Of a stretch of 64,000 nt of DNA, positions 8,637 through 44,626 are shown in pieces (position 1 is the stretch's first letter; every line of letters starts with the position of its first letter). The notes under the pieces were generated by a model. The model had not been told where the DNA came from and ran no database searches. It saw only the letters and a program-made list of their open reading frames with translations. Position numbers and translations under genes: made by a program. The DNA is from Chloroflexota bacterium (GTDB taxonomy: Bacteria > Chloroflexota > Anaerolineae > Anaerolineales > UBA4823): the NCBI GenBank assembly GCA_029265355.1, contig JAJUJL010000002.1:332803-396802 (forward strand), in the 5' to 3' direction.

Positions 8637-8664
8637 AAGCGCCGGTTTTTGGTGGAGGCGTAGG

Positions 8665-9312: not shown

Positions 9313-9320
9313 AGGCTGTT

Positions 9321-10862: not shown

Positions 10863-10903
10863 GTGACCCTATTTGACCTGAGCTGAGGTAGAGGAGCGTG
10901 GCA

Positions 10904-12652: not shown

Positions 12653-12679
12653 CTCCGTATCCGGGGAAGAGGATGTCGT

Positions 12680-14024: not shown

Positions 14025-14027
14025 TTG

Positions 14028-14420
14028 ATGACAGCGCGGGTCGTTTTTTATCAGTTGCGCACAAGGTTTGTCAACCGCAGGGAGGATATCCCGGAACAAG
14101 CGCGCCAGGTGGTGTATTACAGCCTGGCGGTTGGGCATCATGTGGGCGTGATGGACTGTTTTAGCAGGTTGGTTGAGGTGCCGTTGGAGAATTTCTTAGA
14201 ATGGTTGCAGACTCTACCCGCAGGTCCAGCGCGGAGTAAGTTGGAGGGTGTGCTAGCCTGGGGCGAGATTGAGATCAATAAAAGTCACAGCGCGATGTTG
14301 CTGCAGCTCTTTGAGCAAGCAAACAAAGACCACCCGACCTGGTTGGATGTCTTGGTGGATGGGCTGCGATGCATGCAACAAGAACCAGCTTATTATTGGA
14401 TGGTTAGAAAGCAGGTCTGA
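14028..14420 (+). CDS. hyfJ: HycH/HyfJ-family hydrogenase maturation/assembly protein
   Basis: MTARVVFYQLRTRFVNRREDIPEQARQVVYYSLAVGHHVGVMDC matches the conserved HycH N-terminus as I recall it (VVF.QL...AQQVVYYSLAIGHH.GV.DC). The ATG at 14028 follows the TTG at 14025. Confidence 0.75.
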   Translation: MTARVVFYQLRTRFVNRREDIPEQARQVVYYSLAVGHHVGVMDCFSRLVEVPLENFLEWLQTLPAGPARSKLEGVLAWGEIEINKSHSAMLLQLFEQANKDHPTWLDVLVDGLRCMQQEPAYYWMVRKQV

Positions 14421-14878
14421 TGAAACAGGTTATTCTGACGGTTGGGAATGCCCTGATGGGCGATGACGCGGCCGGGGTGTTGCTGGCTCAGATGATGAGC
14501 CAGCAACCGGTGGAAGGTTGGCAAGTGGTGAATGGGGGCTCTGCGCCGGAGAATGTGCTCCACCGGGTGCGGGAGCTGGCGCCTGAGCGGGTGCTGGTAG
14601 TGGATGCGGCTGATATGGAACTGCCTGAAGGGTCAGTGAATTGGATCGACGCGGAAAAGCTGCAAGATCCATTTCTGTTAACCACGCATACACTGCCTCT
14701 GAGCTACTTGATCGAGGCGTTGCGTGAGTTTGTTCCCCAGGTTGAGCTGCTTGGCATCCAACCCGCAGTGGTGGCGTTTGGGTATCCAATTTCGCCGGCA
14801 GTGAAAGATGCTGTGGAAAGGGTTTACACGGCGTTGCAAAATGGCGCATTGATATTTGAGCCTCTACCGGTTGGCTGA
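14420..14878 (+). CDS. hycI: Hydrogenase large-subunit C-terminal maturation endopeptidase (HycI-like)
   Basis: MKQVILTVGNALMGDDAAGVLLAQ is the signature N-terminus of HycI/HybD proteases. TGATG overlap with the hyfJ stop. Confidence 0.8.
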   Translation: MKQVILTVGNALMGDDAAGVLLAQMMSQQPVEGWQVVNGGSAPENVLHRVRELAPERVLVVDAADMELPEGSVNWIDAEKLQDPFLLTTHTLPLSYLIEALREFVPQVELLGIQPAVVAFGYPISPAVKDAVERVYTALQNGALIFEPLPVG

Positions 14879-29160: not shown

Positions 29161-30237
29161 TCACTCTATGCGGTACACCGTAAATTCCTCCCGGCAAGGC
29201 CTGCCGTTCGCCAGGTGGAGTTCTTTGCGCTGCGGCAGGTAGATGGTACAAGCAATGGTGGCTATGTTTGGTTCCAAGTCCAGGTGGCGGCACAGTGTGT
29301 CCAACGGGCCGTTGTGGCTGCGCATCAGGGATTTCGCCCACTCGAGGTCCACCTGACCGCTAGCCTGCAGAAGCGCCTGCTGCACGCGTTGGTAGCGCGC
29401 TTCTGAGTTACCAGCCAAGTGCTCGCTCTGGTTGCTCGGAAGCCAGCTATCTTCCAGGTGCTTTGTGGTGTAGTGGTTGGTGCTGACGGAAAAGCCGCCG
29501 GATGCCATAATCACCGGGCTGCTGCTGTAACCGCATTCCACCACCGCAGATCCGCCGCGAGCGTCCTGCAGGATCAGCGTTCCGTTGCCCATAAACCGAA
29601 CCGTGCGCAGGTAATCTAGCGCTGAAGCCACGCTGTCATGCTGTTCCAGGATTGCCATCATCAGGTAGTAGCGGGGCACGCCCGGTCCAATATCCATTGA
29701 GACTACGTGGGTATCAGCTACCGCCAGACCTGCAGCGTTCATGCCTGAGCTAAATACGCCCGGACTGCCAGCGCTGGTCAGATTCAAGTAGGGATAGCCT
29801 GTCTCCGGAAAGGTGGATGACAGGCACTGCAGATGCTGATGATCCTGCCAGTAGTCGCGGTTTTTCACCAGCAGCGGCTCACCATCCTTCGTAATCGGCG
29901 CACCAGCCGCCCAGGTGGTGCAGCCCTGGGCTTCATGGTGCTGATTTTTAGCCTGATCCATCAGGAAGGTGGATATAGTATAGCGAAAGAAGCGCTCCCA
30001 CTCGAGGGACAGCGAATCGCCCAGCCCTCGCAGCATATCCAGAATGGATGGAGCCTGCACCTGCCAGACCTCCAGCAGCTCCTGCTCGTGCTCGTGCACG
30101 TCCAGACCGGTGGCTTCCAGCCTTGCCAGTCGGTCTGCGATAGCGATATGGATGTGATGGTGCAGATCAGCAACCTGCTCGCCGTGCTGCTTGCCGATAG
30201 TGTACGCGTTTCCAAAAAGGCGCAGTTGTCGGATCAT
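29161..30237 (-). CDS. Peptidase C45-family Ntn-hydrolase/acyltransferase-like protein
   Basis: [21 protein letters not shown] is a typical C45 N-terminus. The self-processing site region AQGCTTWAAGAPITKDGEPLLVKNRDY has the nucleophile Cys. ATGA overlap with the upstream ATPase stop. Confidence 0.75.
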   Translation of the reverse strand: MIRQLRLFGNAYTIGKQHGEQVADLHHHIHIAIADRLARLEATGLDVHEHEQELLEVWQVQAPSILDMLRGLGDSLSLEWERFFRYTISTFLMDQAKNQHHEAQGCTTWAAGAPITKDGEPLLVKNRDYWQDHQHLQCLSSTFPETGYPYLNLTSAGSPGVFSSGMNAAGLAVADTHVVSMDIGPGVPRYYLMMAILEQHDSVASALDYLRTVRFMGNGTLILQDARGGSAVVECGYSSSPVIMASGGFSVSTNHYTTKHLEDSWLPSNQSEHLAGNSEARYQRVQQALLQASGQVDLEWAKSLMRSHNGPLDTLCRHLDLEPNIATIACTIYLPQRKELHLANGRPCREEFTVYRIE

Positions 30238-31304
30238 GGATTGCTTTCTTTGCTTGGCATTGTACCCTCGGTAGCTGGCTGGTCTTTGTAGATCCAGCAG
30301 GCTACCTCCTGCCCCCCAATCCGGAAAAACGGCGGGTATTCCTGCTCGCAGATCGAGCCGATTTTGGCGTAGCAGCGCGGATGAAAGGGGCATCCAGAGG
30401 GGGGGGTGATTGGGCTGGGTACGCCACCCTGTAGCAGAATGCGCTGTTTACGGTAAGCCTTGCTCACCCTGGGGATGGCCGCCAGCAGGGCGCGGGTATA
30501 AGGGTGGAGTGGCTCACCGAACAGGGCGTCGGTTATTCCCAATTCGACGATATGACCCAGATACATCACGGCCACGCGGTCGCTGATGTAGTACATCACG
30601 CTCAGATCGTGAGCGATAAACAGGTAAGTCAGATGAAATTCTGCCTGCAGCTCCTCCAGCAGGTTGATCACCTGCGCCTGGATCGATACATCCAGCGATG
30701 AGACCGGCTCATCGGCGACAATAAATTTTGGCTTCATCGCCAGGGCACGGGCAATGCCGATGCGCTGGCGCTGACCGCCAGAGAACTGGTGTGGGAAGCG
30801 GTCGATGTGGCGCTGGTTCAACCCCACGCGCTGTAGGAGCTGGCGGGTTTCAGCCTCGCGCTGGATGGGGTCGCTCACGCCGCGCCGCTCCAGAGGAGTG
30901 CCAATGATCTCGCGCACCGTTTTTCGCGGATTGAGCGACGAGTAAGGATTCTGGAAGATGATCTGGGCCACGCGGTGATAGCTGACCGACTGTTCCTTGC
31001 CATTGTTTTCGAGGAGCTGGTTGCCCTGCACCGGTCGCCCTTGGTAAAAGATCTGCCCGCGTGTAGGCAAGTGCAAGCGAGTCATTACCCGCCCCAGGGT
31101 GGTCTTGCCGCAGCCAGATTCTCCCACCAGACCCAGGGTCTCGCCGGGGAAGATGTCCAGGTCCACACCGTCAACTGCGCGCACCACTTTCTCCCGCGCC
31201 TTGCCCAGTGCGCGCGCCAGCAGGCTAGGGCGTATGTAGAAATGTTTGTAAATCCCCTGCGCGCTGAACAGCGGGATTGTCTGTGGACTTATGGATTGGC
31301 TCAT
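30234..31304 (-). CDS. Oligopeptide/dipeptide-type ABC transporter ATPase (OppF/DppF-like)
   Basis: Walker [10 protein letters not shown]. Signature FSGGQRQR. Walker B FIVADEP. C-terminal oligopeptide-ATPase extension ([15 protein letters not shown]). ATGA overlap at 31301..31304. Confidence 0.9.
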
Positions 31305-32383
31305 ACCGTACGCTCCACGCGATCGCTCCATTGCCAGTTTTCCTGCCGCTGAAAGCCGGTGTGTACCAGGCAGCGGTTGATGTGTCCATCCGGCTCGGTC
31401 ACCATGGGCACCGGACCGATCCGGCACACGTCCTGAACATGCTCGCAGCGCGGTGCAAAGGCGCACCCGAATGGAAGCTCTGCCAGGTCGGGCACGTTAC
31501 CGCGGATCGGCTGCACGCGCAGTTCGCGCATTGAAATGCGCGGTCGACAGTTGAGCAGCCCTTGAGTATAGGGGTGCCTGGGATGCATTACCACTTGCTC
31601 CACGTTGCCTTGTTCGACGATGCGCCCAGCGTACATGACTGCGATGCGCTGGCAGAATTCCGCTGCCAGGCCCAGGTCATGGGTCACCAGGATGATGGCG
31701 GTACCACGTTCTTTGTTGATTCGCAGCATAAGCTCCACGATCTGGGCTTGGATCGTCACATCCAGGGCGGTGGTGGGCTCATCTGCCAGCAGCAGCGTTG
31801 GACCGCAGACCAGGGCTGCTGCGATCAGTGCCCGCTGTTGCATGCCGCCCGAAAACTGGTGTGGGTAGGCCACATAACGATCTATCGGCGATGGGATGCC
31901 CACCTCCCGCATCACTTCGAGCACACGCTGTTTCTCATGGCGGCGCAGCGCGGCATCAAAAGGCCAGGGCATTTTTCGCCCTGGGATGATATGGTGCAGG
32001 CGCAGCGCCTCGCGGATTTGCTCGCCGACCAGGAAGGCCGGATTGAGCGTGGTCTGCGGGTCCTGGAAGATCATTGAAATCTCTTTGCCTCGCACCTGGC
32101 GCATGGCGGAACTGTTCAACTGGCGTAGATCCACACCGCGAAAGCGGATCTCGCCGTCGCTAATATAACCTGGATGACGGATCAGACGCAGGATGGAGAG
32201 CAGCACTGTGCTCTTGCCGCAGCCGGATTCGCCAACGATGCCCAGGATCTCGCCAGCGCGCATGTTGAGGTCCAGGCTGTCCACGGCGCGCACATCGCCG
32301 CGTCGCCCCGGAAAGATCGTCGTCAGGTTACGAATTTCGAGCAGATTGCCATTATGCATAGAACTAACTCCACGCACTGCCAT
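31301..32383 (-). CDS. Oligopeptide/dipeptide-type ABC transporter ATPase (OppD/DppD-like)
   Basis: Walker A GESGCGKST. Signature FSGGMQQR. Walker B LLLADEPTTALD. HPYTQGLL and CAFAPRC tail. The ATG at 32383 shares one base with the permease TAA (TAATG). Confidence 0.9.
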   Translation of the reverse strand: MAVRGVSSMHNGNLLEIRNLTTIFPGRRGDVRAVDSLDLNMRAGEILGIVGESGCGKSTVLLSILRLIRHPGYISDGEIRFRGVDLRQLNSSAMRQVRGKEISMIFQDPQTTLNPAFLVGEQIREALRLHHIIPGRKMPWPFDAALRRHEKQRVLEVMREVGIPSPIDRYVAYPHQFSGGMQQRALIAAALVCGPTLLLADEPTTALDVTIQAQIVELMLRINKERGTAIILVTHDLGLAAEFCQRIAVMYAGRIVEQGNVEQVVMHPRHPYTQGLLNCRPRISMRELRVQPIRGNVPDLAELPFGCAFAPRCEHVQDVCRIGPVPMVTEPDGHINRCLVHTGFQRQENWQWSDRVERTV

Positions 32384-33321
32384 TAAACATCCACCTTCAA
32401 CCGGGGGTCGAGGATATCGCGCAGCCCTTCGCCAAACAGGTTGATCGCCAGTACCAGCACCAGGATGGCGATACCGGGCAGCGACGCCACCCACCAGGCG
32501 ACCAGCATGTAATCGCGTCCGGCGGCCACCATTGAGCCCCAGGCAGGGATGCTGGGCGGGATACCCAATCCCAGGAAGCTCAGGCTGGCTTCCATGATGA
32601 TCATGTGACCCATACGCAGCGTCCCCAGTACAAATACCGATTGGATGATATTGGGCAAGATTTCTTTCAATATGATCGCAGGATGGCTTAATCCGGCGAC
32701 TCGCGCTGCCTCCACATATTCTTGGGTTTTTTCAGAAAGCATCTCACCACGCACCAGGCGGTAAAACTCCACCCAGCCCTTAAAGGTCAGTGCAAGGATC
32801 AGGTTGGTGAAGCCCGGTCCAAGGAAGGCCATCATGCCAATGGCAAAGATCAGAAATGGAAATGCGAGCAGCAGGTCGGCGAAGCGCGAAACCAGGGTGT
32901 CAAACCATCCGCGGTAGTATCCAGCCAGCGCGCCGAGGAACACTCCAACCAACACCGAAGCGCCGACTGAGAGCACTCCGACCAGCAGCGAGATGCGCGA
33001 CCCATAGATGATGCGCGTCAGCAGATCGCGCCCTTGGGCGTCGGTGCCCATTGGATATTCCCAACTACCTCCTTCGATCCAGCTAGGCGGATCCAGCCGC
33101 ACGCGCAGGTTGCCGCGCACTGGATCGTGTGGGGCGATTTGCTCTGCAAAGAGGGCCATGATAAAGAACAGGATGATCACCAACCCACCCAGGAGCGCCA
33201 TGGGGTGATTGCGGAGCTCACCCAAAAACTCGGTGAAGTTATGCCGCCAGACGCGCAGGCGGATCCGCCACAAGTATGCGCTGCGCTGCCAGAAGGTTTC
33301 CAGTTCGGGAGTTGCTTCCAT
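32383..33321 (-). CDS. ABC transporter permease (OppC/DppC-like)
   Basis: Six TM segments. N-terminal OppC-type segment. Conserved loop YVEAARVAGLSHPAIILKEILPN. Confidence 0.9.
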   Translation of the reverse strand: MEATPELETFWQRSAYLWRIRLRVWRHNFTEFLGELRNHPMALLGGLVIILFFIMALFAEQIAPHDPVRGNLRVRLDPPSWIEGGSWEYPMGTDAQGRDLLTRIIYGSRISLLVGVLSVGASVLVGVFLGALAGYYRGWFDTLVSRFADLLLAFPFLIFAIGMMAFLGPGFTNLILALTFKGWVEFYRLVRGEMLSEKTQEYVEAARVAGLSHPAIILKEILPNIIQSVFVLGTLRMGHMIIMEASLSFLGLGIPPSIPAWGSMVAAGRDYMLVAWWVASLPGIAILVLVLAINLFGEGLRDILDPRLKVDV

Positions 33322-33335
33322 ATGGTGTTCCCTGC

Positions 33336-34346
33336 TCAGAGCTCGATCTTAGGGTTCAGGTAGGTGTACATCACATCTACGATAAGGTTTGCCATCACAA
33401 ACGTGAAGGCGTAGATCATGACGGTTCCCTGGATGAGCGGGAAATCGCGATCGAAGATGGCGCTCACCACCATACGACCCAATCCGGGCCAGCCAAACAC
33501 TTCTTCGACAATCATGTTGCCACCCAACAGAATGCCCACCTGCAAGCCAACCACCGTCACAGTGGGGATGAGGGCGTTGCGCAGGGCATGTTTGAGCACC
33601 ACAATCCATTCTGAGGCGCCCTTACTGCGCGCCAGGGTCACATAATCGCTGCGCAGCGTTTCTAGCATGCTGGATCGCAGTACCCGCGCCACCACTGCCG
33701 CTACCGGCGCGCCTAGTGTCAGTGAGGGCAGGATCAGGTGCCTGAGGCTGCTCCAAAAGGCGATGCGGTTGCCGCTCAGCAGGCTGTCCAGCACGAAATA
33801 GCCGGTGATGTTTTGAAGCTGGGCATCGAACCCGATGCGTCCCTGTACCGGCAGCCACTTCAGTTGCACGGAAAACAGTAAAATGAGAATAATTCCCAGC
33901 CAGAAGCTTGGCATTGAGATGCCCAGGAAGGCGCCTGCCATGCTTAGCCGGTCAACCGCTGAATTTTGGCGCACCGCGGAGATGATGCCGATCGGGAAAG
34001 CGATGAGCAAGCTGATGACGAGCGAACCTAAAGCCAGCTCGATAGTGGCGGGGAGACGCTCAGAAATGAGCTGCGTCACCGGTCGTTTGAGCACATAAGA
34101 ATAGCCCAGGTCGCCGCGCACAGCATCCTTGAGAAACAGCCAGAGTTGAACTGGCAGTGGCTCGTCCAGGTGGAATTCTTTGCGCAACTGTTCCATCTCC
34201 CCCTCAGAGACTGCTCCGCCCTGACCCATCATGATATCCACCGGGTCGCCCGGCGTCAGACGGATAAACAAGAAGACCAGGATCGCCACACCCAGCACGA
34301 TAGGGATCGTCACCAGGACGCGTTCCAGGATTTTAACGGCTCTCAT
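33336..34346 (-). CDS. ABC transporter permease (OppB/DppB-like)
   Basis: MRAVKILERVLVTIPIVLGVAILVFLFIRLTPGDP is a typical OppB N-terminus. Conserved loop YVTLARSKGASEWIVVLKHALRNA. Confidence 0.9.
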   Translation of the reverse strand: MRAVKILERVLVTIPIVLGVAILVFLFIRLTPGDPVDIMMGQGGAVSEGEMEQLRKEFHLDEPLPVQLWLFLKDAVRGDLGYSYVLKRPVTQLISERLPATIELALGSLVISLLIAFPIGIISAVRQNSAVDRLSMAGAFLGISMPSFWLGIILILLFSVQLKWLPVQGRIGFDAQLQNITGYFVLDSLLSGNRIAFWSSLRHLILPSLTLGAPVAAVVARVLRSSMLETLRSDYVTLARSKGASEWIVVLKHALRNALIPTVTVVGLQVGILLGGNMIVEEVFGWPGLGRMVVSAIFDRDFPLIQGTVMIYAFTFVMANLIVDVMYTYLNPKIEL

Positions 34347-34428: not shown

Positions 34429-36144
34429 TTACGGCCCCAGGCACACGTCATGCAGGTTGATGCGCCCATCTGCGGCAGGCTCCCAGTTCTGCACTCTCGT
34501 AGAAGCAGCTTCTGCTTCTTCTGGAAGGATCAGGAAAACCGCTGGCGCCTCGTCGTACACAAGTTGCTGCGCCTCGTCGTAAATCTTCTGTCGTTCAGTT
34601 GGATCGTTGGTGGTTTCACCTAGCACGATCAGCTCATTGACGCGGGGGTTATTATAGGTCGAGAAGTTGCCGCGTCCATAGGGCGTCCCAGTTTGAAATC
34701 CATGCCACTTAGCCTCGAAGTGTCCCACGGGGTCGAAGGCTGAGTCGCCCCAGTCGTCCAAGTATGCCAGGCGCTCACCAGCCAGCAACTGCTCGCGCAC
34801 CACGCTGTACTCCCAGAAACGCACACTGGCGTCAATTCCGATGGCCCGGAACATGTCGGCAACCGCTTCAGCCAGCGAACGGAATTCTTCCAGCGTGTCC
34901 AGGGTGAATGAGAAAGTTTGCCCATCCTTATCCAGAAGACCATCGCCGTTGCTGTCGGTCCAGCCGGCTTCCGCAAGCAGCTCCAGCGCCTTATCAGGAT
35001 CATATGCGTAGGGCTGCAGGCTCTTGTTGACGTAGTTGTTGTAGGGTGAAAGCGGTCCAGGCAGCGCTACTGCGCGCCCGCCGTAGATCTCCTCAATGAT
35101 CAGGTCTTTGTCCACGGCGTAGTTCATTGCCTGACGTACGCGTACGTCATCGAAGGGCGGCTTGTTGACGTTCATTTCCATCCACTTGGGGTTGGTGCCG
35201 ATTGCTGTCTTGACCTGGATACCGGGTGTCTGCGAGAGCGTGTCGATTAGCTCTGCTGGCACCGCCTGGATGATATCCACCTCGCCTGCCAGCAGGGCAG
35301 CCACGCGGGTAGAGGCCTCTGGGATCACGCGGAAGATAGCACCCTGGACGCAGGCAGGCTGGACCGGCGCAAGGTCTGGCGCGCCGCCGTAGTAGCCATC
35401 GAACCTTTCCAGAACCACTTCTTCCAAACCGGGCTGAGCAGAAACGAACTTAAACGGACCAGTGCCGATGGGGTTTTCGATGAAACCCTGGGTGCCCACT
35501 TCTTCCAGATAGCCCATGGGAACGATCTGCTGGTGAACCATGAGCTGCATGGCGGGAGGCCACGGGCCGTTGAAGTTCATCCTGACCGTGTAGTCATCCA
35601 CCTTATCGACTGACATCAGCGGCGCGATCAAGCCTTTGCGCGGCGAGGTGTGCGGATCGGGATACTCAATCATGTTCTCCTGGATGATGCGGTTGAAGGT
35701 ATACACCACATCATCGGCGGTCATTTCAACACCGTTGTGAAAGGTAACACCCTGGCGCAGCTTGACTTCTAGCGTCTGCTCATCCAGCCAATTCATCTCT
35801 TCTGCGATCTCCAAATGCACGCCGTTGCTCGTATCGCGCGTCACCAGCCCGTCGAACATGTTGCGGATCACAGTTTCGGACTGGCGGCTACGATGATCGG
35901 CAGGATCGAGCGAGGTGGGCGCCTGGGAAAGGGCGACGATGATCGTCTGACGACCGGGCGCAGCGGTAGGAGTGACCAACTTCTCTACCTCGACCAGCCT
36001 CTCTTCCGTTACAACGACTGTTCGCACCACCTCAACAGTCTTTTCAACCACTTGGGGCTGCGCGGGTTCAGTTGGTGCGCAGGCTGCCAGCAAGAGTGCA
36101 GCGGGCAGAACCACGCGAAATAGAGTATTAAAGAAACGCTTCAT
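34429..36144 (-). CDS. Family-5 (peptide/opine/nickel) solute-binding lipoprotein
   Basis: The ATG at 36144 follows GGAGGAGG. Lipobox LLLAAC. SBP_bac_5-like body (LEVKLRQGVTFHNG, GTGPFKF). The track start at 36297 is an upstream extension. Confidence 0.85.
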   Translation of the reverse strand: MKRFFNTLFRVVLPAALLLAACAPTEPAQPQVVEKTVEVVRTVVVTEERLVEVEKLVTPTAAPGRQTIIVALSQAPTSLDPADHRSRQSETVIRNMFDGLVTRDTSNGVHLEIAEEMNWLDEQTLEVKLRQGVTFHNGVEMTADDVVYTFNRIIQENMIEYPDPHTSPRKGLIAPLMSVDKVDDYTVRMNFNGPWPPAMQLMVHQQIVPMGYLEEVGTQGFIENPIGTGPFKFVSAQPGLEEVVLERFDGYYGGAPDLAPVQPACVQGAIFRVIPEASTRVAALLAGEVDIIQAVPAELIDTLSQTPGIQVKTAIGTNPKWMEMNVNKPPFDDVRVRQAMNYAVDKDLIIEEIYGGRAVALPGPLSPYNNYVNKSLQPYAYDPDKALELLAEAGWTDSNGDGLLDKDGQTFSFTLDTLEEFRSLAEAVADMFRAIGIDASVRFWEYSVVREQLLAGERLAYLDDWGDSAFDPVGHFEAKWHGFQTGTPYGRGNFSTYNNPRVNELIVLGETTNDPTERQKIYDEAQQLVYDEAPAVFLILPEEAEAASTRVQNWEPAADGRINLHDVCLGP

Positions 36145-36405
36145 TGTCCTCCTCCATTTGGTAATTGAATGATTGGATGCCGTACCCCTATGACGAAGAT
36201 GGATTGGGATAACCACTTTATTCTTTTCCCTCGACCTCCTTGCTATAGAATAGATTTGGACGGGTGTGCCGGATAAAAGCCTTTTTGGATAGGCCAATCT
36301 GAAGGCACCTGTGCAGACCTGAACTGCAGGCTGGCGCTCCGGTTCAATTCAACAGCCCATGAATTGCGAAATGTGAATGGCTCTTGTGCATAGGGTGTAT
36401 TTGGT

Positions 36406-39400
36406 TCAACTGGCCACAGGAGATGGCACACCGTGCATCAGGGATTTCAACGGAAGCAGCTCTCGCTTCATCACCCGCAGCGCCTGCTCAGGGTTGACGC
36501 GTCCATATAGCCCGCCCAAAATGCTAACCAGATATTGGGCATCTAGTAGCACTTCACCGTTTGGGCGCAAAATATACTCTTCCTCGGGTGAAAAAAGCGC
36601 TCCTTCTGCGATAGCTGCCAGGTCTTGCTGGTAGCCAGGCTCGCGGTATCGGCACTTATGGTAGATCGTGCCTCCGATCAACAGCACGGTGACAGGCTGG
36701 TTGAAGTAATTGACACCATACTGAAGGAAGTAGGTTTCGGTCTCATCCACACGCCCGGTGTGTTTACCGGTGGTGACTGCCATGATCTCGCGCGCCAGGT
36801 ATGATGTGGCGGCATTCTCCAAGGCTGTGTTTGGCGAGGCATGCGGATTCTGGCTGATCCAGCTCAAGTATCCGTCCAGATCTACCGAATTGCGCCCATT
36901 GCTGCGCGTGACAAAGCGACGGAACTGGTCATTGCCAGGCGTCATTTCTTGTGGGTAGCGCAGTTCCAGGTAGCTGGCGAGCTCGTCCGCCAGCTTGCCG
37001 TTCTTGAAGCGCGGCAGTTCCTTGATATTCTCTGCATTGTAGCTCAGGCCGAACTTACCTTCGACGCGGCGAAAAACGAGCGGCACGTTGGGCGTTTTCA
37101 GGATAGTGCGCTTGACTTTCCGTCGAGGATCCTGTCCTGGGAAAGCGTACAATGGATTGTCATGAACGTTGGAGTAAAAATCGGTGGTGGCGCCGCCAAT
37201 ATCCAATGCCATGATATTGCCCAAACCCGGTTCACTGCCATAGCCGTTGGCTAACAGGTTTATGCCGCGAAAGGCTGCGCGCGGGGTAGGTATGAAGGGC
37301 GCGTCCATGTACTCCTCAACCACATCGAAGCCTTTGCCGCGGATGATCACGGTTTGGAACAACTCGCGAATTGCTTCGTTGACCACCTCAATGCGAAAGT
37401 TGTTGATCTCGGGCATCACATTGGGCATGATGCGAATATCGATATTGCGGTAGCAGAAAATATTGGCAATTCGATCTCGAATATCCTGGTTGCCAGCGTA
37501 GATGACTGGCACGCCGTAGTCGGCATAGGTGGCGTAGCGGGCGTTGCGGGCCAGCAAGCGGGCGTTGTGAAGCTGGGTAAAGGTGTCGCCGCCGTCATCC
37601 GTACCGCCTGCCAGGAGGATAATTTCTGGTTGATCCACCTCGTAAATGCGCCGCGCCTGTTCGGGTGTGAGTTGCCCTTCATAAGAGTTCACCAGCTTAG
37701 CTCCCGCGGTCAGCGCAGCCAGCTCAGCCGCGAAGCCCGATTCTTCTTTAACCAGCGCTACGGTCACCATCTTCAAACCGCCTTTGGCGCTGGAACAGGG
37801 AAGGCGGACGGCGAACTCGCGCATCTTGGCAGCCAGGGGTTTCCAGTCGCCACTTTCTCGGCAAGCATCCAACACTCCCAGTCCATCCGCTAGGCCGATG
37901 CGAATGTCTTCGACGGTGGTGGGCTTGTAGCGCAGTTCAAAGGTTTCTCGCCGGGTATCAAAGATGCCCACCTTGGTATAGGTGCTGCCGAAGTCCACCA
38001 CCAGGATTTTTTCGTCTGCCAATCCCGTGAGGCCAATTTCCTTGCGGAAGCTGGTGACCATCTCTTCATCGACGCGCTCGACTTCGGCGTCTTCAGAGAT
38101 GAAGCTGGCTTCATTGGCGTGGATGATGTCTTTGTAAAAGTACCACGGATAGGTCTTGCGAACCAAATCGACGCGTTCCATTTCACTATAGACCTTGATG
38201 CCATTCCACTCATCACAGCGGCACATGCCATTGATCACTTTCGTGCGGCAAGCGCCAGCCATCTCGTAACGCCGGTCCACCACTGTGATATGCGGCCCTT
38301 GAAACAGCCCAATCTGCAGCGCCAGGTCGAGCGTGTCACCAGCAATCAAGCCGCAGATACCGATCGGGTAGTTGGTTTCGTCAACCAGACTGAGCAGCAT
38401 GGTTTCGTAGTTCTTCTCGCGGTTTTCCTTTGGCTCATTGGCCCACTCATCGAAGTTTTCGGGGCGTATCTCACCCTCGTATCCACCCAGGATGGCGCAG
38501 TGCAGCAGGTTGTACATGGCGCTCTGCTTGAGCTCTTTGATGCGCCCGACCACTATCGGATCCGACCAGATATCGGGTACATTGCCTTTGGCGAAATCCC
38601 AGCAGACCTGCTTGACGATCTCGCAGGATTCGATGATGTCATCGGCGCTGGCTTCATGGTGTGCTTCGGAATGGGTGACGACATGCAGAATGTCGGGCTG
38701 CATGTAGAGCTGGGTGTAGATGCCAAATGCCAGGTGACCCTTGGCCTGGTTCAGATTAGGAGGGAAGGAAGGTAGGCCGGAGCGCGTCTGACGCAGGATG
38801 CGAAATTCGAAGTGGCGGGTAAGCGGCTCCGCCAGTTCATAGGCGGCTTTCATCTTTGCCAGGTCGTCCATGGCAGAGATTTCCGGCGGCAGCTCGAACA
38901 TCATCTGCATCACGTAATTCTTGATGCCCTTTTTTAGGGCAATCACGGCGCACAACACGTGGTCGGTCACCTGCATGTCGTCGGAAGCGTAGCGCAGCCC
39001 CCATTGATGGGGATCGTTGATCTCCAGCGGTTTGCCGATCGAAGCCCAATACTCGATGGTGCGAAAGTGCTCGTCGAAGCTATCACGTATACTGATCGGG
39101 CCACGTCCATCCAGCTCGTTGTAAAAAAAGATTGGTACAGCGGGAAAAGCGATGTTGAGATGTTCTTCCCAAAGATGCGCCAGTGTGACCAGCTCATCGG
39201 TGCCGGTATAGATGCGCGTCAAGGGGAAATTGCCGCGCTGAGAAGCAGCTTTGAGGCGCTTCAGGTCCTCGATGGAGCGGATCGGTGCTCCACCTTGACC
39301 AGCCAGGTACTTGCTGGGGTCTTCTTCGCCGCGGATGAACTTGGCCAGCAGCTCTTGAGAGGTCTGGTCAGGAGCGAGTGAGACAATCTCGAAAGCTTCA

Positions 39401-40113
39401 GCTTCTGCCAGCTTCTCAATCGCCGCCACAGTGGGTTCGATGGTCTCTGCCGCGATGCCGATGTGGGCTCGGATGATTGGGCGGTTTTCTCGCTCGCGCA
39501 CCTGCCGGATACGCTCGACAAGATAGTCAGACCAGGGATTTTCTTGACGCACATGGGTGGTAGAGCGGCGCTGGGCGAATGCCTCCAGCTCCTCCATGGT
39601 AACAAAGTCATCCACCACCAGCTCAAAGAACCCCTGGAAGTGCTCCTTCTGGCGGTATTCATTGGCTATTTTTTCAAGATCAAAGTGGCGTTCTTCATCC
39701 CGGATGAAGCGGTCTTCCTCCAGTGGTAAGCCGGTCATGGCGCGTACCAGATTGGCTGCCGGTCGCAAACCGCCGAAGCTGTAGCGGATGCCCGAATCGC
39801 GCGGGTGCAGCCCATATTTGGTGGCTTCTTCGATGAATTCACTGATCAGCTTATCCACATGCAGGTCGCCCAGGCGCATGGAGACGCCCACCACTTCCGG
39901 GCGCGCCTCGCGCACCTTGTTGATCACTTCACGGATCGGGACTGCTGGACCGAGCTTGACCGAAACATAACCCAGGCCCATATCCTGCATCCAATCAGCA
40001 AAGTTCTCAACACCCAGGTTGTGCACACACTTGCCAATCGCCCCGACCATAACACGTCGTTTTTGAGCGCTGGTGTGGATCTTCCTACTTGGATGGTTAT
40101 TTTTTTTGGCCAT
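36406..40113 (-). CDS. Fusion protein: cobalamin-binding domain + glutamate-mutase-E-like TIM barrel + GlmL/MutL-like ASKHA ATPase
   Basis: B12-type Rossmann N-terminus at 39715..40113. GlmE-like landmarks in the centre. The C-terminal 533 aa (36409..38007) carry ILVVDFGSTYTK, CSSAKGGLKM, IILLAGGTDDGG and ALDIGGATTDFYS, as in GlmL. The ATG at 40113 has GAGGAG 10 nt upstream. The track start at 40215 lies inside the upstream gene. Confidence 0.8.
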   Translation of the reverse strand: MAKKNNHPSRKIHTSAQKRRVMVGAIGKCVHNLGVENFADWMQDMGLGYVSVKLGPAVPIREVINKVREARPEVVGVSMRLGDLHVDKLISEFIEEATKYGLHPRDSGIRYSFGGLRPAANLVRAMTGLPLEEDRFIRDEERHFDLEKIANEYRQKEHFQGFFELVVDDFVTMEELEAFAQRRSTTHVRQENPWSDYLVERIRQVRERENRPIIRAHIGIAAETIEPTVAAIEKLAEAEAFEIVSLAPDQTSQELLAKFIRGEEDPSKYLAGQGGAPIRSIEDLKRLKAASQRGNFPLTRIYTGTDELVTLAHLWEEHLNIAFPAVPIFFYNELDGRGPISIRDSFDEHFRTIEYWASIGKPLEINDPHQWGLRYASDDMQVTDHVLCAVIALKKGIKNYVMQMMFELPPEISAMDDLAKMKAAYELAEPLTRHFEFRILRQTRSGLPSFPPNLNQAKGHLAFGIYTQLYMQPDILHVVTHSEAHHEASADDIIESCEIVKQVCWDFAKGNVPDIWSDPIVVGRIKELKQSAMYNLLHCAILGGYEGEIRPENFDEWANEPKENREKNYETMLLSLVDETNYPIGICGLIAGDTLDLALQIGLFQGPHITVVDRRYEMAGACRTKVINGMCRCDEWNGIKVYSEMERVDLVRKTYPWYFYKDIIHANEASFISEDAEVERVDEEMVTSFRKEIGLTGLADEKILVVDFGSTYTKVGIFDTRRETFELRYKPTTVEDIRIGLADGLGVLDACRESGDWKPLAAKMREFAVRLPCSSAKGGLKMVTVALVKEESGFAAELAALTAGAKLVNSYEGQLTPEQARRIYEVDQPEIILLAGGTDDGGDTFTQLHNARLLARNARYATYADYGVPVIYAGNQDIRDRIANIFCYRNIDIRIMPNVMPEINNFRIEVVNEAIRELFQTVIIRGKGFDVVEEYMDAPFIPTPRAAFRGINLLANGYGSEPGLGNIMALDIGGATTDFYSNVHDNPLYAFPGQDPRRKVKRTILKTPNVPLVFRRVEGKFGLSYNAENIKELPRFKNGKLADELASYLELRYPQEMTPGNDQFRRFVTRSNGRNSVDLDGYLSWISQNPHASPNTALENAATSYLAREIMAVTTGKHTGRVDETETYFLQYGVNYFNQPVTVLLIGGTIYHKCRYREPGYQQDLAAIAEGALFSPEEEYILRPNGEVLLDAQYLVSILGGLYGRVNPEQALRVMKRELLPLKSLMHGVPSPVAS

Positions 40114-41296
40114 GCGACTCTGTCTCCTCAGAATGGATAAGTTGATCGAGCGTGGTGATACCATAGCGCTGCGGGGCGCGGCTGGCGGCAATATCTTTGC
40201 CTTGCAGTTTTCCATCGATGAGATATTCGTGACCCAGGCGCTGCTGAGCCCAGGTTAGCACCCGGTCAATCTGGGGTGTTGGCACGCCAGCCAACTCAGC
40301 GATGCCGCGGGTGGCGATCAACGCATAGGGCACATCCTCTGACAGATAGCGTGCCTGAAAATCGGGCTCTAAGCCGCCCTCAGATTGTCTCACCGGAGCT
40401 CTCAAACCCTGGTAGCTCCGATTTGTGTTGAACGCGGCCTGGAGGCTACTGGTATCGTGCAGGTCTCTTCCATAAGATAGATGCAGCCATTGATCTAAAG
40501 GACGGACGGCTGAAAGGTCAAGCATTGGGAAGCTCTCTTGCAGGGCCGCCCGAACGGCCTGCACTTCGTCGCTCATGGTTTGCAGCACATTGGCTGTGAA
40601 AGCATCCACGCCCTGATAAAAGAGAGGAGCTTCCTCGAGCGGTTCGCCAGACCAGGTGTGAAATAATCCATACATGATGCCAGGGTGAATGAGTTGCCCG
40701 GTGCCTGCCAGGGTAAGGCTAAGAAAATTAGCGATGGGTGTGACTTGCAGGTCGAGGAGGTGGGTCAGGGTGTGAGAGATGGCTGCAGCTTGATGTGTTG
40801 GGTGGGCGGCAAGATCGACCTGGGATTTTGCGCCCAGGACAAGCACACTCTGTCCAAAGACTTCGATACGGCAAGCCCATGGCAGGGTTTGCAGCCCGAA
40901 GATTACACAGCGCTCGGCAAGCTTGCCCAGTGCCTCACGCGCGCACAGGTCGAAAGCGCCGCGAGCTGGTAGAGCGCCGATCCAGGTGCCTGGTTCTAGA
41001 TGGGAAGCAAGCTGGCACAACACAGCTTCGTGGGCGTAAGCGGGCAACGCCAGCAGCACCATTTGTGCATGAGCGGCGGCATCCTGGGGATTCGAACTGA
41101 TTAGGCTGGGATAGCCAAGCAGCTCGCTCTCTCGGTTGCGCACGCACATACCGCCGCCCAAAGCTAAGCCCTGTTTCCAACGCTCTGCTTCTTCCGGGAA
41201 GGATAGAAAGACATTAATATGATTATCAGGCCGTGATGCCAGTATCCCAGCTAGGGTGTGGGCAGCATTACCGCCACCGCAGATCAGGATGTGCAC
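40097..41296 (-). CDS. NAD(P)-dependent opine (octopine/nopaline) dehydrogenase-family protein
   Basis: Rossmann start MHILICGGGNAAHTLAG. C-terminal helical-domain motif ARYLSEDVPYALIATRGIAELAGVPTP is typical of Octopine_DH. Overlaps the fusion gene start by 17 nt. Confidence 0.8.
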   Translation of the reverse strand: MHILICGGGNAAHTLAGILASRPDNHINVFLSFPEEAERWKQGLALGGGMCVRNRESELLGYPSLISSNPQDAAAHAQMVLLALPAYAHEAVLCQLASHLEPGTWIGALPARGAFDLCAREALGKLAERCVIFGLQTLPWACRIEVFGQSVLVLGAKSQVDLAAHPTHQAAAISHTLTHLLDLQVTPIANFLSLTLAGTGQLIHPGIMYGLFHTWSGEPLEEAPLFYQGVDAFTANVLQTMSDEVQAVRAALQESFPMLDLSAVRPLDQWLHLSYGRDLHDTSSLQAAFNTNRSYQGLRAPVRQSEGGLEPDFQARYLSEDVPYALIATRGIAELAGVPTPQIDRVLTWAQQRLGHEYLIDGKLQGKDIAASRAPQRYGITTLDQLIHSEETESHGQKK

Positions 41297-41298
41297 GC

Positions 41299-42171
41299 TT
41301 ACTCCAAATATAAGAGATCGTTTTCGCGATATGCGTTATCTATACGTTGCAGTGAGGCCAGTGTTTGTTCGGGGAGCCGGAAAGATAAGGCTGCGATGAA
41401 AACATTCAGCAAAGACATCAGCGCAGCCGCGGAAAGACTGTGAGCCACGCCTTCGGTGACCACTTCAAAAGCGAAATCGGCGTTTTCTGCCAGCGGAGAG
41501 ACAATGGAGTCTGTAATTGCGATCACCTTAGCGCCAGCACTGCGTGCTTTGCGAACCGCGCTCACGGTTGATCGTACGTAACGCCACAGGTCGATTGCAA
41601 CAAGCAGGTCGCCCTGACGCAATCCCGTCAAGTCAGAAGCCAGAGAAAGGCCTTCGTTGATATTCAAGCGGGCATCCAAACCAATGATCTTCAGCGAATG
41701 GCTCAAAAATACTGCCGCGGAAGAAGATATACCGGTGCCGACGACCAGGATGCGCTGCGCTTCGGCCAAGGCCTGGACTGCCTCGTTGAGTTTCTCGTTG
41801 TCCAGATTGCTCGCTGTGCGCTGGATATTGCTGATATCCGTTTTGAATATGGTTCCAGGCATCCCGCTCGACTCTTCTGGAGATTCAATACGCGATTTCA
41901 AGCGATCCATAGCTCGCAGATAACTGGGCAGTTCGGCACGGATGGCGCGCTGCATCTCGGGATAACCCTCATACCCCAATGTTTGGGCAAAGCGGACCAC
42001 GGTAGCGGCGCTGGTGCCAGTCCGTTCACCTGCCTGGTGAGCTGATGCGAAGGACATAAAGTATTGGTTATTCAGGATGAAGCGCGCCAGGCGTTTGTGT
42101 TTTGGGCTGAGCTGTGGGTGAAGCTCGGAGATGCGTTGAACAATCTTTTGACCGTAAGGCGGTACTTCCAT
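41299..42171 (-). CDS. MurR/RpiR-family transcriptional regulator (HTH_6 + SIS)
   Basis: HTH region LSPKHKRLARFILNN...SAHQAGERTGTSAATVVRFAQTLGYEGY. SIS domain RILVVGTGISSSAAVFLSHSL. The ATG at 42171 is preferred because the TTG at 42186 lies inside the predicted -10 box. Confidence 0.8.
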   Translation of the reverse strand: MEVPPYGQKIVQRISELHPQLSPKHKRLARFILNNQYFMSFASAHQAGERTGTSAATVVRFAQTLGYEGYPEMQRAIRAELPSYLRAMDRLKSRIESPEESSGMPGTIFKTDISNIQRTASNLDNEKLNEAVQALAEAQRILVVGTGISSSAAVFLSHSLKIIGLDARLNINEGLSLASDLTGLRQGDLLVAIDLWRYVRSTVSAVRKARSAGAKVIAITDSIVSPLAENADFAFEVVTEGVAHSLSAAALMSLLNVFIAALSFRLPEQTLASLQRIDNAYRENDLLYLE

Positions 42172-42177
42172 TACTCT

Positions 42178-42218
42178 ATAATACAATAATATTGCAATAA
42201 ATGAAATATCTATTTCAT
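42178..42218 (-). promoter_or_regulatory. Candidate promoter with overlapping palindromic operators for the rpiR-led operon
   Basis: Minus-strand reading is TTTCAT (42201..42206), 17 nt, TATTAT (42178..42183), 6 nt, ATG (42171). The palindrome TATTGCAATA (42190..42199) lies in the spacer. The inverted repeat ATGAAAT-N4-ATTTCAT (42201..42218) overlaps the -35. Confidence 0.4.
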
Positions 42219-42540: not shown

Positions 42541-43104
42541 TTAATCCTCTTCGACCTGATCTTTCGGAACGAAATAGACATCGGTGGGCTTGATCTTGCT
42601 ATTGCGCAGGAAGCGAGGTTGCACCGGCATGCCAATCCAGCTCAAGTCAGCGGCTTGCGGGTCGACGCCCATTAGCCGGGTGAGAAGCAGGGTGTTGACG
42701 CCCTCGAACTCGATCAACGCCAGGACGAACGGCGTTTCGGGCAGGAATTCTTCCGAGCCGAAGTGGCAGACCGTGAAGGCATGCACACGCGCTGGGCGGT
42801 CTGTGATATCCAACCAGACCGTTTCGTTGCCGGAGTACATATCATGGCCGCGTGGGGTGGCGTAAGTGTAGCCGCTGACCGTGTCTTTGTTCGCCAGCAG
42901 GCGCTTATTGCTCAATGCTGCAAACCAGGGGCTATCCTGTCCATAGGAGTGCAGGTAGGTGATCTGGTAAGGATGCTCCACCAGGATAGGCTGCTGCTGT
43001 TTGAGTTGCGCCAGGGAGGCTTCATCCAACACCTTGGGGAAGGGCAAGTTGTGGACAATGGCGCCTCCCATGCTTTCTGGACGGCGTTTGGGTAGCTTGG
43101 TCAT
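42541..43104 (-). CDS. DUF35 OB-fold/zinc-ribbon acyl-CoA-associated protein
   Basis: OB-fold segment HAFTVCHFGSEEFLPETPFVLALIEFEGVNTLLLTRLMGVDP. AGGAGG SD. Paired with the upstream thiolase-like gene. Confidence 0.75.
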   Translation of the reverse strand: MTKLPKRRPESMGGAIVHNLPFPKVLDEASLAQLKQQQPILVEHPYQITYLHSYGQDSPWFAALSNKRLLANKDTVSGYTYATPRGHDMYSGNETVWLDITDRPARVHAFTVCHFGSEEFLPETPFVLALIEFEGVNTLLLTRLMGVDPQAADLSWIGMPVQPRFLRNSKIKPTDVYFVPKDQVEED

Positions 43105-43113
43105 GATGTCCTC

Positions 43114-44478: not shown

Positions 44479-44626
44479 GCAGTTTCCTCCGGTGAAGTCT
44501 GAACAGGCGCACGGTTTTGAAGACTGGCGGACAGGATGGTGGGTAAAACTTCGCCAGCGTAGTGAATACCATTGTAGCAAAAAAACGAGCCGGTGGCATG
44601 CGGTAAAGGCTGAGAGGAGGGTTTTA

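Follow-up and report, generated by a model that had tools for sequence, protein, structure and literature searches.

A conserved fusion of a B12-binding domain, a GlmE-like barrel and a GlmL-type ATPase, coupled to an opine dehydrogenase gene in Chloroflexota: a candidate carbon-skeleton mutase

Within the window (the whole 64,000-nucleotide stretch of Chloroflexota DNA analysed here), a minus-strand gene (36406..40113) was identified from the ORF list and its translation as encoding a single protein of 1235 aa (plus stop). The maximal ORF around this gene spans 36406..40215 (1269 aa, minus strand). The ATG at 40113, which yields the 1235-aa product, has a GAGGAG Shine-Dalgarno sequence 10 nt upstream and lies at the start position shared by homologues. 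The protein consists of an N-terminal cobalamin-binding domain (S), a central barrel (E) and a C-terminal ATPase module (L). The original prediction had placed these modules in this order in one reading frame of 1235 aa, and the ORF, the Shine-Dalgarno sequence and the domain matches bear this out.

The S module (aa ~18-133; 39715..40062, minus strand) was assigned as a cobalamin-binding Rossmann domain using PF02310, a family profile and an AlphaFold2 (AF2) model, in which beta/alpha alternation is seen. PF02310 (B12-binding) scores the window protein at 21.7 bits (aa 20-82), below its gathering score of 32.1, but is matched by 27 of 44 relatives. The S-module family profile matches the solved B12-binding domains of 4jgi (9e-8), 2yxb (3e-6) and GlmS (0.007), and this range (9e-8 to 7e-3) upholds the earlier assignment of the N-terminus to a Rossmann-type B12 domain. 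Binding of cobalamin as cofactor is predicted from these similarities. The DxHxxG cobalt-ligand motif takes the form CxHxxG here (C29-V-H31-N-L-G34; 40012..40029, minus strand), and this variant is invariant in 30 S-E-L homologues, with Cys29 aligning with the Asp of the motif in corrinoid proteins. Across the broad family (n=44), 22 sequences have Cys in this column and 17 have the canonical Asp, which is carried by more distant relatives. The His31 column is His in 39/44, the remainder being gaps and one Tyr. S78-x-x-L81 and G114-G115 are also conserved. We know of no characterised precedent for an invariant Cys replacing the Asp of DxHxxG, and with this exchange normal His-on chemistry could be changed or lost.

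The E module (aa ~198-660; 38134..39522, minus strand) gave no direct match to Pfam, NCBIfam or PDB sequences, and was identified with Foldseek and hhalign as a GlmE-like (beta/alpha)8 barrel with a C-terminal helical region. Among PDB structures, glutamate mutase E best matches its AF2 model of pLDDT 79.5 (1cb7_B/6h9e_B, E=1e-12; TM 0.66 over the target, 12% identity to GlmE), and every one of the top fold matches is an AdoCbl isomerase: GlmE, then ornithine/lysine aminomutases, then acyl-CoA mutases. Alignment of the E module with the GlmE profile (hhalign, E=1.9e-4) covers 370 columns, window residues 198-645 to GlmE 48-441, with a probability of only 47.5%, for which reason the active-site mapping is provisional. 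Met_asp_mut_E (PF06368) is matched by 8/44 relatives, one of them above the gathering score, and does not match the window protein. Fold match and transitive HMM evidence thus agree with the strongly diverged GlmE-like barrel originally proposed; the motif pairs then matched by eye fall within the correct regions, although the profile-profile alignment shifts them by 1-2 residues. At the positions provisionally aligned to the GlmE arginine claw, R66 corresponds to His217, R100 to Gln253 and R149 to Tyr302, so that none of the three glutamate-binding arginines is found there. The loop carrying GlmE Y181 is deleted, and the counterpart of E171 varies. R215, Y302, D335, R337, E364 and D378 are invariant barrel residues specific to the family, and near-invariant Glu483 aligns with GlmE Glu330, which we take to be an adenosyl ribose contact.

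A flexible linker (aa ~661-702; 38008..38133, minus strand), modelled by AF2 at pLDDT 36-60 and poorly conserved in alignment A1, leads to the L module (aa 703-1219; 36457..38007, minus strand), a MutL/GlmL-family ASKHA ATPase. Pfam MutL (PF13941) covers aa 703-1219 at E=1.9e-85 over profile positions 1-450 of 450, and GlmL is the best NCBIfam match, the Or-4 model matching too. Membership of the GlmL family as originally claimed therefore stands, but its closeness was overstated, with NF040745 (GlmL) scoring 283 bits against an equivalog cut-off of 475; the TIGR01319 cut-off was narrowly missed. The L-module model (pLDDT 87) has an ASKHA fold according to Foldseek, matching hydantoinase/acetone-carboxylase ATPases, sugar kinases and RACo, and the phosphate-binding motifs DFGSTxTK and DIGGATTD are invariant.

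Fusions of this kind, with a conserved length of about 1220 aa, occur in 173 species-representative genomes, all of them MAGs and mostly Chloroflexota, and homologues of this length with at least 60% identity are spread across phyla. Among 75 loci from other genomes, 74 have the L module joined to S-E without a break, and the fusion is thus not an assembly or frameshift artefact. Split forms also exist, in which a stand-alone MutL gene lies directly upstream of the S-E gene (loci L102 and L138) or two genes upstream of it (L129). Shorter S-E relatives without a GlmL module occur in other contexts, which fits an accessory rather than a catalytic role for L. S-E-L proteins are publicly annotated only as 'glutamate mutase L', 'TIGR01319 family' or 'hypothetical', and no published description of the architecture was found in the literature searched. 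The fusion is in that sense undescribed, as had been suggested, but it is not a one-off: S-E-L fusions form a widespread, uncharacterised enzyme family.

Immediately upstream lies an opine dehydrogenase gene (40097..41296, minus strand; PF02317, E=8e-35), whose stop codon (40099-40097) falls inside the first codons of the S-E-L gene, giving a 17-nt overlap. Its product matches Pecten octopine dehydrogenase (3c7a) over the full length (E=1.8e-90), with H204/R316/D321 aligned to H212/R324/D329, presumably the catalytic residues of that enzyme; judged by sequence, the partner is a bona fide opine dehydrogenase homologue with the catalytic triad. An opine dehydrogenase gene directly adjoins the fusion in at least 66 of 75 S-E-L loci, and the S-E gene in 57/60 loci of relatives lacking GlmL. 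This almost constant neighbour points to an unknown B12-dependent pathway. The near-obligatory partnership is the most informative feature of the locus; it was absent from the original prediction and is a new observation of the present analysis.

The surrounding genes, all on the minus strand, were compared with those of 33 fully flanked S-E-L loci. A MurR/RpiR-family regulator (HTH_6 and SIS, from Pfam and NCBIfam; 41299..42186) is found in 20/33 loci, and an RpiR or GntR regulator in 23/33. On the other side of the fusion lies an Opp/Dpp/Nik-type substrate-binding protein (maximal ORF 34429..36297; SBP_bac_5, E=1e-83), shared by 27/33 loci, which in the window falls below every NCBIfam equivalog cut-off. 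ORF translations place two permeases (maximal ORFs 33336-34346 and 32383-33321) and two ATPases (31301-32494 and 30234-31466) of the same ABC importer at 30234..34346; in other loci, BPD_transp_1/OppC_N and ABC_tran/oligo_HPY are found in their homologues, and an importer permease is present in 28/33. A C45-family autoproteolytic acyltransferase/hydrolase (Ntn amidase; 29161..30393; PF03417, E=5e-18; NF040521 at 167 bits, cut-off 85) follows. This amidase occurs in 22/33 loci and is replaced by Peptidase_C26 in two others, an amidase of either kind being present in 24/33. The Opp-type importer and amidase are additions of the window's clade to the pair of mutase and opine dehydrogenase. Neither a cobalamin riboswitch nor a gene for handling B12 turned up within the window.

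The reading we favour, at a probability of roughly 0.6, is that the S-E-L protein is a carbon-skeleton mutase of the glutamate-mutase lineage that depends on adenosylcobalamin, carries its own GlmL-type repair module on the same chain, and acts on a non-glutamate, opine-linked substrate within a catabolic operon. The N-terminal Rossmann domain would hold the cofactor base-off/His-on via His31 and cap the C-terminal face of the GlmE-like barrel, the putative substrate site, with Co-C homolysis leading to a 1,2-rearrangement. At the C-terminus, the ASKHA ATPase of GlmL type would serve, on its flexible linker, as chaperone/reactivase in cis, spending ATP to free damaged cobalamin and so letting fresh coenzyme bind. 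The one paper found on this point calls even canonical GlmL a reactivase purely on the analogy of the diol-dehydratase factor, and by the same analogy the S-E-L protein may be self-reactivating. The substrate would be an amino-acid or opine-type carboxylate other than free glutamate, shared with the translationally coupled opine dehydrogenase. In the window's clade this pair would belong to a catabolic operon in which the Opp-type importer takes in an amide-linked conjugate, the C45 (or C26) amidase frees an opine or amino acid, and opine dehydrogenase and mutase probably convert it to central metabolites.

It is unlikely that the L module is instead a catalytic ATPase of the hydantoinase/oxoprolinase/acetone-carboxylase type that activates the substrate, for example by carboxylate, amide or lactam phosphorylation, before or after the B12 step. 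Its best fold matches are indeed the ATPase subunits of acetophenone carboxylase, N-methylhydantoinase and acetone carboxylase, yet Foldseek TM-scores against the carboxylases are only about 0.3. A weak Hydant_A_N match was seen in homologue P0122, against a sequence assignment of the module to MutL/GlmL at E=2e-85. The limitation of the fusion to the catabolic clade could reflect an extra chemical step; no partner resembling HyuB or a beta subunit is present, however, and only a minority of S-E genes have a stand-alone MutL gene with them, a pattern typical of an accessory factor. The NCBIfam-curated MutL relatives are likewise accessories of AdoCbl enzymes (GlmL with methylaspartate mutase, Or-4 with ornithine degradation), whose chemistry, to our knowledge, needs no ATP.

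It is quite unlikely that the protein is simply a true glutamate (methylaspartate) mutase, though fused and diverged, with the amidase freeing glutamate or 3-methylaspartate from imported gamma-glutamyl or peptide compounds and the mutase interconverting them. In favour of this stand the best structural match (GlmE), the Met_asp_mut_E matches of relatives and the best NCBIfam match of the L module (GlmL), and glutamyl-related partners recur across the superfamily: Peptidase_C26 (gamma-glutamyl hydrolase type), GSH-S/RimK ATP-grasp fusions and PGA_cap. The window protein itself, however, has no PF06368 match, its GlmL score is far under the equivalog cut-off, and R66, R100, R149 and Y181 are all missing at the aligned positions, with a variable counterpart of E171. 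Methylaspartate-pathway genes, including those for methylaspartate ammonia-lyase and mesaconase, were not found within the window, and the known pathway of glutamate mutase makes no use of an opine dehydrogenase, the constant partner here. Active site and genomic context thus argue, as did the original prediction, for a substrate other than free glutamate.

Cnt systems pair an opine dehydrogenase with an SBP_bac_5 Opp/Nik-type importer, as does this locus, and the operon might make and re-import an opine-type metallophore in the style of staphylopine or pseudopaline, the mutase supplying an unusual amino-acid building block and the transporter importing the metal complex. This is improbable: the sub-threshold NikA and CntA matches of the substrate-binding protein are equalled by oligopeptide and glutathione binder models, no nicotianamine-synthase-like gene, exporter or metal-responsive regulator was seen in the loci listed, and the amidase and the sugar/amino-sugar-type regulators (RpiR, GntR-UTRA) point to catabolism. 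A corrinoid methyl-transfer component (methyl-carrying N-terminus, methyltransferase-type TIM barrel and RACE/RamA-like ATP-dependent reductive activator) is highly improbable, since, despite the N-terminal domain coming closest, in single-sequence comparison, to the methyltransferase corrinoid proteins MttC 7xcn and 4jgi and the MtbC/MtgC models, RACo being among the L-module fold matches, and a non-Pyl MttB-family gene lying within the transporter operon in 6/33 fully flanked loci, most loci have no MttB gene, the barrel's top folds are AdoCbl isomerases and not MtaB, MeTr or MttB, relatives match Met_asp_mut_E, no B12-binding_2 cap domain was detected, and Pfam and NCBIfam find in the window protein no domain of the Fe-S or ferredoxin kind that RACE activators use for electron transfer.

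Among known systems, Clostridium glutamate mutase with its accessory protein (GlmS/GlmE and GlmL, or MutS/MutE/MutL) is built from the same three kinds of module as the favoured mutase, which also keeps the residue matched to GlmE Glu330 in the alignment. The Clostridium system is made of three proteins and not of one polypeptide; the S-E-L barrel has 12% identity to GlmE without its arginine claw, CxHxxG stands in place of DxHxxG, the GlmL equivalog cut-off is missed, and as partner an opine dehydrogenase takes the place of methylaspartase. IcmF (isobutyryl-CoA mutase fused), structures of which are among the S-E-L fold matches, likewise joins the B12 domain and barrel of an AdoCbl mutase to a nucleotide-dependent chaperone. 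In IcmF the chaperone is a G3E GTPase of the MeaB type, placed as an insert between the domains, whereas in S-E-L it would be a C-terminal ASKHA ATPase, and IcmF acts on acyl-CoA substrates while the S-E-L barrel is GlmE-like. The diol/glycerol dehydratase reactivases DdrAB/GdrAB and EutA, ATP-dependent ASKHA-type factors that free damaged cobalamin from AdoCbl enzymes, provide the mechanistic model assumed for GlmL, but are separate proteins serving eliminases; they gave no sequence match and were absent from the top 50 L-module fold matches. D-ornithine 4,5-aminomutase (OraS/OraE) is the second-best barrel fold match, and the GlmL-related Or-4 model matches the L module, in both cases below the scores of GlmE and GlmL. 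OraS/OraE is PLP-dependent, and on reading the window sequence no lysine was seen about 11 residues past His31, presumably the PLP-binding position of lysine 5,6-aminomutase. Octopine dehydrogenase (OcDH) of Pecten maximus resembles the partner over its full length, including the aligned His, Arg and Asp, but its M206 and Y208, which we take to line the arginine pocket, are both Gly in the window partner, for which a different amino-acid substrate is therefore expected. Unlike this marine-invertebrate enzyme, the window partner comes from a bacterium, and a B12 enzyme is translationally coupled to it.

An uninterrupted ORF was identified on the minus strand of the window from 40215 to 36406 in the window ORF list, within which translation from an ATG at 40113 yields a protein of 1235 residues (36406-40113). 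This start is credible because a Shine-Dalgarno motif (GAGGAG) lies 10 nt upstream of it, homologues from other genomes align with the protein from residue 1-18 onward and the last position of the upstream gene is 40097, giving an overlap of 17 nt between the two genes that suggests translational coupling. Domain matches along the ORF follow the order of a cobalamin-binding module (S, approximately residues 18-133), a barrel like that of glutamate mutase subunit E (GlmE; E, approximately residues 198-660) and an ATPase of the MutL/GlmL type (L, residues 703-1219), with L contiguous with S-E in 74 of 75 homologous fusion loci. The original prediction of an S-E-L order in one reading frame, starting at this ATG, was thus borne out.

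The architecture of approximately 1220 residues was found to be kept in homologues at 60% identity or more, which are labelled only as ‘glutamate mutase L’, ‘TIGR01319 family’ or ‘hypothetical’; the first of these labels is misleading for the annotation of proteins of 1220 residues. The survey of domain architectures showed the fusion to be conserved, with 173 carriers when each species was represented by a single genome. The 80 loci kept all derive from metagenome-assembled genomes (MAGs), mostly of Anaerolineae and Caldilineales, with scattered occurrences in Armatimonadota, Acidobacteriota, Saprospiraceae, Ignavibacteriales, Firmicutes, SAR324 and Acetothermia, and the closest relative among them belongs to an Anaerolineales MAG (91% identity). 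An exhaustive search of 1.8 billion representatives with the barrel as the sole query returned 308 relatives, most of which are S-E proteins of 540-636 residues without an L module. Their database names are ‘hypothetical’, ‘cobalamin-binding protein’ or, erroneously, ‘methionine synthase’. A GSH-S/RimK ATP-grasp domain or an M15-peptidase-like tail is attached to some of these S-E relatives, and more than 519 metagenomic loci of the family were found. Stand-alone MutL genes lie upstream of S-E genes at loci L102, L138 and L129 (directly upstream at the first two), indicating that split and fused forms both exist. Furthermore, on the metagenomic contig L154 (480-9580) a stand-alone MutL gene (480-1844) and an S-E gene (4176-5804) are followed directly by an S-E-L fusion (5897-9580), so paralogous split and fused versions can coexist.

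Residues 703-1219 were found to match PF13941 (MutL) over positions 1-450 of the 450-position profile (287.8 bits, E=1.9e-85). The L module of the window protein scored 283 bits against a cut-off of 475 for NF040745 (the GlmL equivalog), 195 against 204 for TIGR01319 and 173 against 600 for Or-4, so that the assignment to the GlmL family holds at the level of a full-length MutL match but falls short of the GlmL equivalog. On the AF2 model of residues 691-1235 (pLDDT 87, pTM 0.86) the module is an ASKHA fold with intact nucleotide-binding motifs, of which DFGSTxTK, GGxDxGG and DIGGATTD are invariant. Its best Foldseek matches were the ATPase subunits of acetophenone carboxylase, N-methylhydantoinase and acetone carboxylase, followed by sugar kinases, with RACo being one of many ASKHA fold matches (TM about 0.23). 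These carboxylase and hydantoinase matches make it possible that L is a catalytic ATPase of the HyuA type, but such a role fits the genomic behaviour of the family less well. An accessory role directed at the cofactor, with L captured in cis, is supported by the pattern of fusion and splitting, by the lack of L in most relatives and by the naming of MutL-family relatives in NCBIfam as accessory proteins of adenosylcobalamin enzymes. In the literature found, a reactivase role for GlmL is given by analogy with work on the diol-dehydratase reactivase, and a review-type statement lists glutamate mutase among the users of reactivases. A reactivase function of the L module is accordingly putative, being suggested by analogy.

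With respect to the N-terminus, a family profile of 44 sequences searched against the PDB matched solved B12-binding domains (4jgi, 9e-8; 2yxb, 3e-6), as well as MttC, MetH, the HCM small subunit and GlmS. PF02310 was matched by 27 of the 44 relatives (best E=1e-10), while the window protein alone reached 21.7-23 bits, below the gathering score of 32.1 bits. The proposed B12-type Rossmann domain is hence upheld through the relatives, and not through a direct Pfam match of the window protein. His31, Gly34, Ser78/Leu81 and Gly114-Gly115 are conserved at the positions of the DxHxxG...SxL...GG fingerprint, with the Asp replaced by an invariant Cys; the corresponding column holds 22 Cys and 17 Asp among the 44 family sequences, with Asp occurring in the more distant relatives. 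By homology, the S module is a predicted cobalamin-binding Rossmann domain, and the Cys-for-Asp exchange beside the putative cobalt-ligating histidine would offer a natural variant for the study of lower-ligand tuning.

No direct match was obtained for the E module of the window protein with Pfam (PF06368 included), NCBIfam or phmmer against the PDB, and the family alignment profile searched against PDB sequences returned B12 domains only and no GlmE. Homology to GlmE emerged only once the structure was predicted, intermediate relatives were brought in and profiles were aligned with each other. The AF2 model of residues 1-700 (pLDDT 79.5) contains eight beta/alpha units at residues 213-480. 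The top Foldseek matches of this model were glutamate mutase E (1cb7_B and 6h9e_B; E=1e-12), with an identity of 12% and a TM of 0.66 over the target, followed by ornithine 4,5-aminomutase, lysine 5,6-aminomutase and acyl-CoA mutases. Met_asp_mut_E (PF06368) was matched at E<=0.01 by eight of the 44 relatives, these being 30-42% identical to the barrel of the window protein; among ten relatives scanned individually, the protein P0129 was the only one above the gathering score. Alignment with hhalign was collinear over 370 columns with a 16-sequence GlmE profile (E=1.9e-4, probability 47.5%), which is shallow because the homologues recovered were all at least 79% identical, and gave a probability of 16% with a single GlmE sequence. 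The diverged GlmE-like barrel originally predicted is consequently supported by fold, by intermediate relatives and by collinearity, with the Pfam match being found in relatives and not in the window protein itself.

Using the sequence of 6h9e_B as reference, the active-site residues of GlmE, which we take from the structure literature to be R66, R100, R149, E171 and Y181 (binding glutamate), K326 and E330, were mapped with hhalign. The three arginines correspond to H217, Q253 and Y302, E171 to a variable E333, K326 to V479 and E330 to E483, while the loop bearing Y181 is deleted in the window protein. None of the glutamate-binding arginines is therefore kept at its aligned position, although R215 and R300 each precede one of these positions by two residues and the modest alignment confidence (47.5%) makes the mapping provisional. 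Across the broad family, R215, H217, Q253, Y302, D335, R337, E364, N366, R374, D378, Q403, R444, H477 and E483 are invariant or nearly so, indicating a pocket in which cationic and polar residues still abound and which would fit a carboxylate substrate, but which differs, on this provisional mapping, from the glutamate site of GlmE. Cysteines 587, 622 and 631 of the C-terminal helical part of E (and also 497) were observed to be invariant or almost invariant in the S-E-L clade and not in the broader family, with no obvious metal-cluster motif among them.

The gene upstream of the fusion (40097-41296, minus strand) encodes an opine dehydrogenase whose alignment with scallop octopine dehydrogenase 3c7a spans the full length (E=1.8e-90 over residues 3-392) and which matches PF02317 (E=8e-35). 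Its residues H204, R316 and D321 align with H212, R324 and D329 of 3c7a, the catalytic residues of that enzyme. For a bacterial protein it is unusually similar to the animal enzyme (307 bits), to which it is far closer than to the bacterial CENDH 1bg6 (57 bits); this likeness may be relevant to how invertebrate opine dehydrogenases arose. Among 75 S-E-L loci that could be assessed, at least 66 have a gene of the Octopine_DH family as direct neighbour, as do all five distant S-E relatives sampled (Promethearchaeota, Rikenellaceae, Clostridiales and others). In a metagenomic scan with a 13-sequence subset as query, 57 of the 60 S-E loci that could be assessed carry such a gene no more than 400 bp away. 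Literature searches on GlmL fusions, on glutamate mutase with opine dehydrogenase, on opine dehydrogenase with ATP-grasp and cobalamin, and on glutamate mutase in Chloroflexi returned nothing relevant; within the literature that could be searched, this tight coupling is undescribed. At two loci with Asgard-like S-E genes, 2-hydroxyacyl-CoA dehydratase genes adjoin the pair on the opposite strand (L084:10885-14214 and L089:8908-10266), with L084 containing two HGD-D genes and a BcrAD/BadFG activator; clustering placed this dehydratase family in three loci.

The identity of the partner, the loss of the arginine claw, the unmet HMM thresholds and the missing methylaspartase together disfavour a genuine glutamate mutase, the enzyme suggested by the closest fold match; neither a methylaspartate ammonia-lyase nor a mesaconase was found among the window genes or in the S-E-L loci examined. 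The earlier proposal of a substrate other than free glutamate is in keeping with this evidence.

Among the 33 fully flanked loci of the window's clade, an Opp/Dpp-type ABC importer was found in 27-28, a C45 amidase (a protein with no sequence relative in the PDB) in 22, a C26 amidase in two, an RpiR regulator in 20 and a GntR-UTRA regulator in three. No cobalamin riboswitch or other Rfam family was detected in the window. The recurrent neighbours of the relatives without L are instead ATP-grasp ligases of the Ddl-like kind and AsnB-like amidotransferases, in many cases within glycan loci. A metallophore operon is a poor description of the gene content of the window's clade, as no synthase, exporter or metal regulator was seen in the loci examined. 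A non-pyrrolysine gene of the MttB family, resembling trimethylamine methyltransferase, separates the permease genes of the Opp-type transporter from its ATPase genes at eight S-E-L loci (L003:1750-3234, L039, L056, L067, L070, L073, L076 and L078), six of them among the 33 fully flanked; it scores 381 bits against the 525-bit cut-off for the TMA enzyme, and no separate corrinoid protein is among the L003 genes listed. These six occurrences and the corrinoid-protein-like N-terminus would favour a corrinoid methyltransferase system with a RACE-type activator, a candidate rejected since the fold relatives of the barrel contradict it, as does the finding by Pfam and NCBIfam of no ferredoxin-type Fe-S domain joined to the ASKHA ATPase in the window protein. 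A PLP-dependent aminomutase was rejected on GlmE being the better fold match and, from a reading of the sequence, on there being no lysine at the position that we take, from lysine 5,6-aminomutase, to be that of the PLP-binding lysine.

Elsewhere in the window, a thiolase-like protein (488 aa), followed by a ChsH2-type OB-fold (DUF35-like) protein, is encoded just upstream of the RpiR gene (42541-44580, minus strand). Such a pairing is known from acetoacetyl-CoA thiolase/HMG-CoA synthase complexes of the archaeal type or from steroid side-chain aldolases. Mrp-antiporter/complex-I-like subunits form a cluster (4212-14878, plus strand) that includes a fused 30-kDa/49-kDa subunit with a NiFeSe_Hases match and has the appearance of a membrane-bound [NiFe] hydrogenase of group 4 or of a related complex for energy conversion. 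A single ORF fusing a chorismate-binding enzyme domain and a class IV aminotransferase domain (59250-61049, plus strand) resembles a PabB-PabC (aminodeoxychorismate synthase-lyase) fusion, and an ORF of 1676 residues (53936-58966, minus strand) has only weak matches, to an Rha78A-like Ig domain and DUF4962 at its N-terminus, and is unassigned over most of its length.

The fusion protein is probably a B12 isomerase plus an accessory ATPase, from a sizeable uncharacterised family; what was first observed is confirmed, and its interpretation is supported with the qualifications described. An adenosylcobalamin-dependent carbon-skeleton mutase is supported by the architecture, by the cofactor fingerprint, by fold matches that are all to isomerases and by the conservation of E483, which corresponds to Glu330 of GlmE. 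To our knowledge, only a handful of reaction types have been described for such mutases. The family is large, unnamed, remodelled in its active site and locked to an opine dehydrogenase, which makes it probable that its reaction is an as yet undescribed B12-dependent rearrangement. We infer a pathway in mirror arrangement, with a substrate predicted to be of the opine or amino-acid type. In biosynthetic loci, the mutase and opine dehydrogenase would make an unusual amino acid or opine that would then undergo amide ligation, while in the window operon a conjugate would be imported, its amide cleaved and the pair run catabolically. The family may represent an ancient, unrecognised module of mutase and opine dehydrogenase, spanning Bacteria and Asgard archaea, that makes or breaks an unusual opine-type or branched amino acid; ATP-grasp or AsnB-type ligases would attach the product to glycans or peptides in the biosynthetic versions, an importer and amidase would feed the window version, in which the GlmL chaperone would have been captured in cis, and CxHxxG would be a new form of lower-histidine tuning. 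This whole reading is tentative, with a probability of roughly 40%.

If this reading is true, the protein would be the first natural example of an adenosylcobalamin mutase fused to an ASKHA-type reactivase. The fusion provides a natural 1:1 complex of mutase and GlmL, and its single chain would be convenient for biochemical and cryo-EM tests of the role of GlmL; IcmF is reportedly such an object for G-protein chaperones. The B12 domain of 2-methyleneglutarate mutase is C-terminal, whereas that of the fusion protein is N-terminal. No G3E (MeaB-like) GTPase domain was found in the fusion protein. Its fusion logic is analogous to that of IcmF, but the nucleotide-binding module joined to the mutase is an ASKHA ATPase and not a G-protein.
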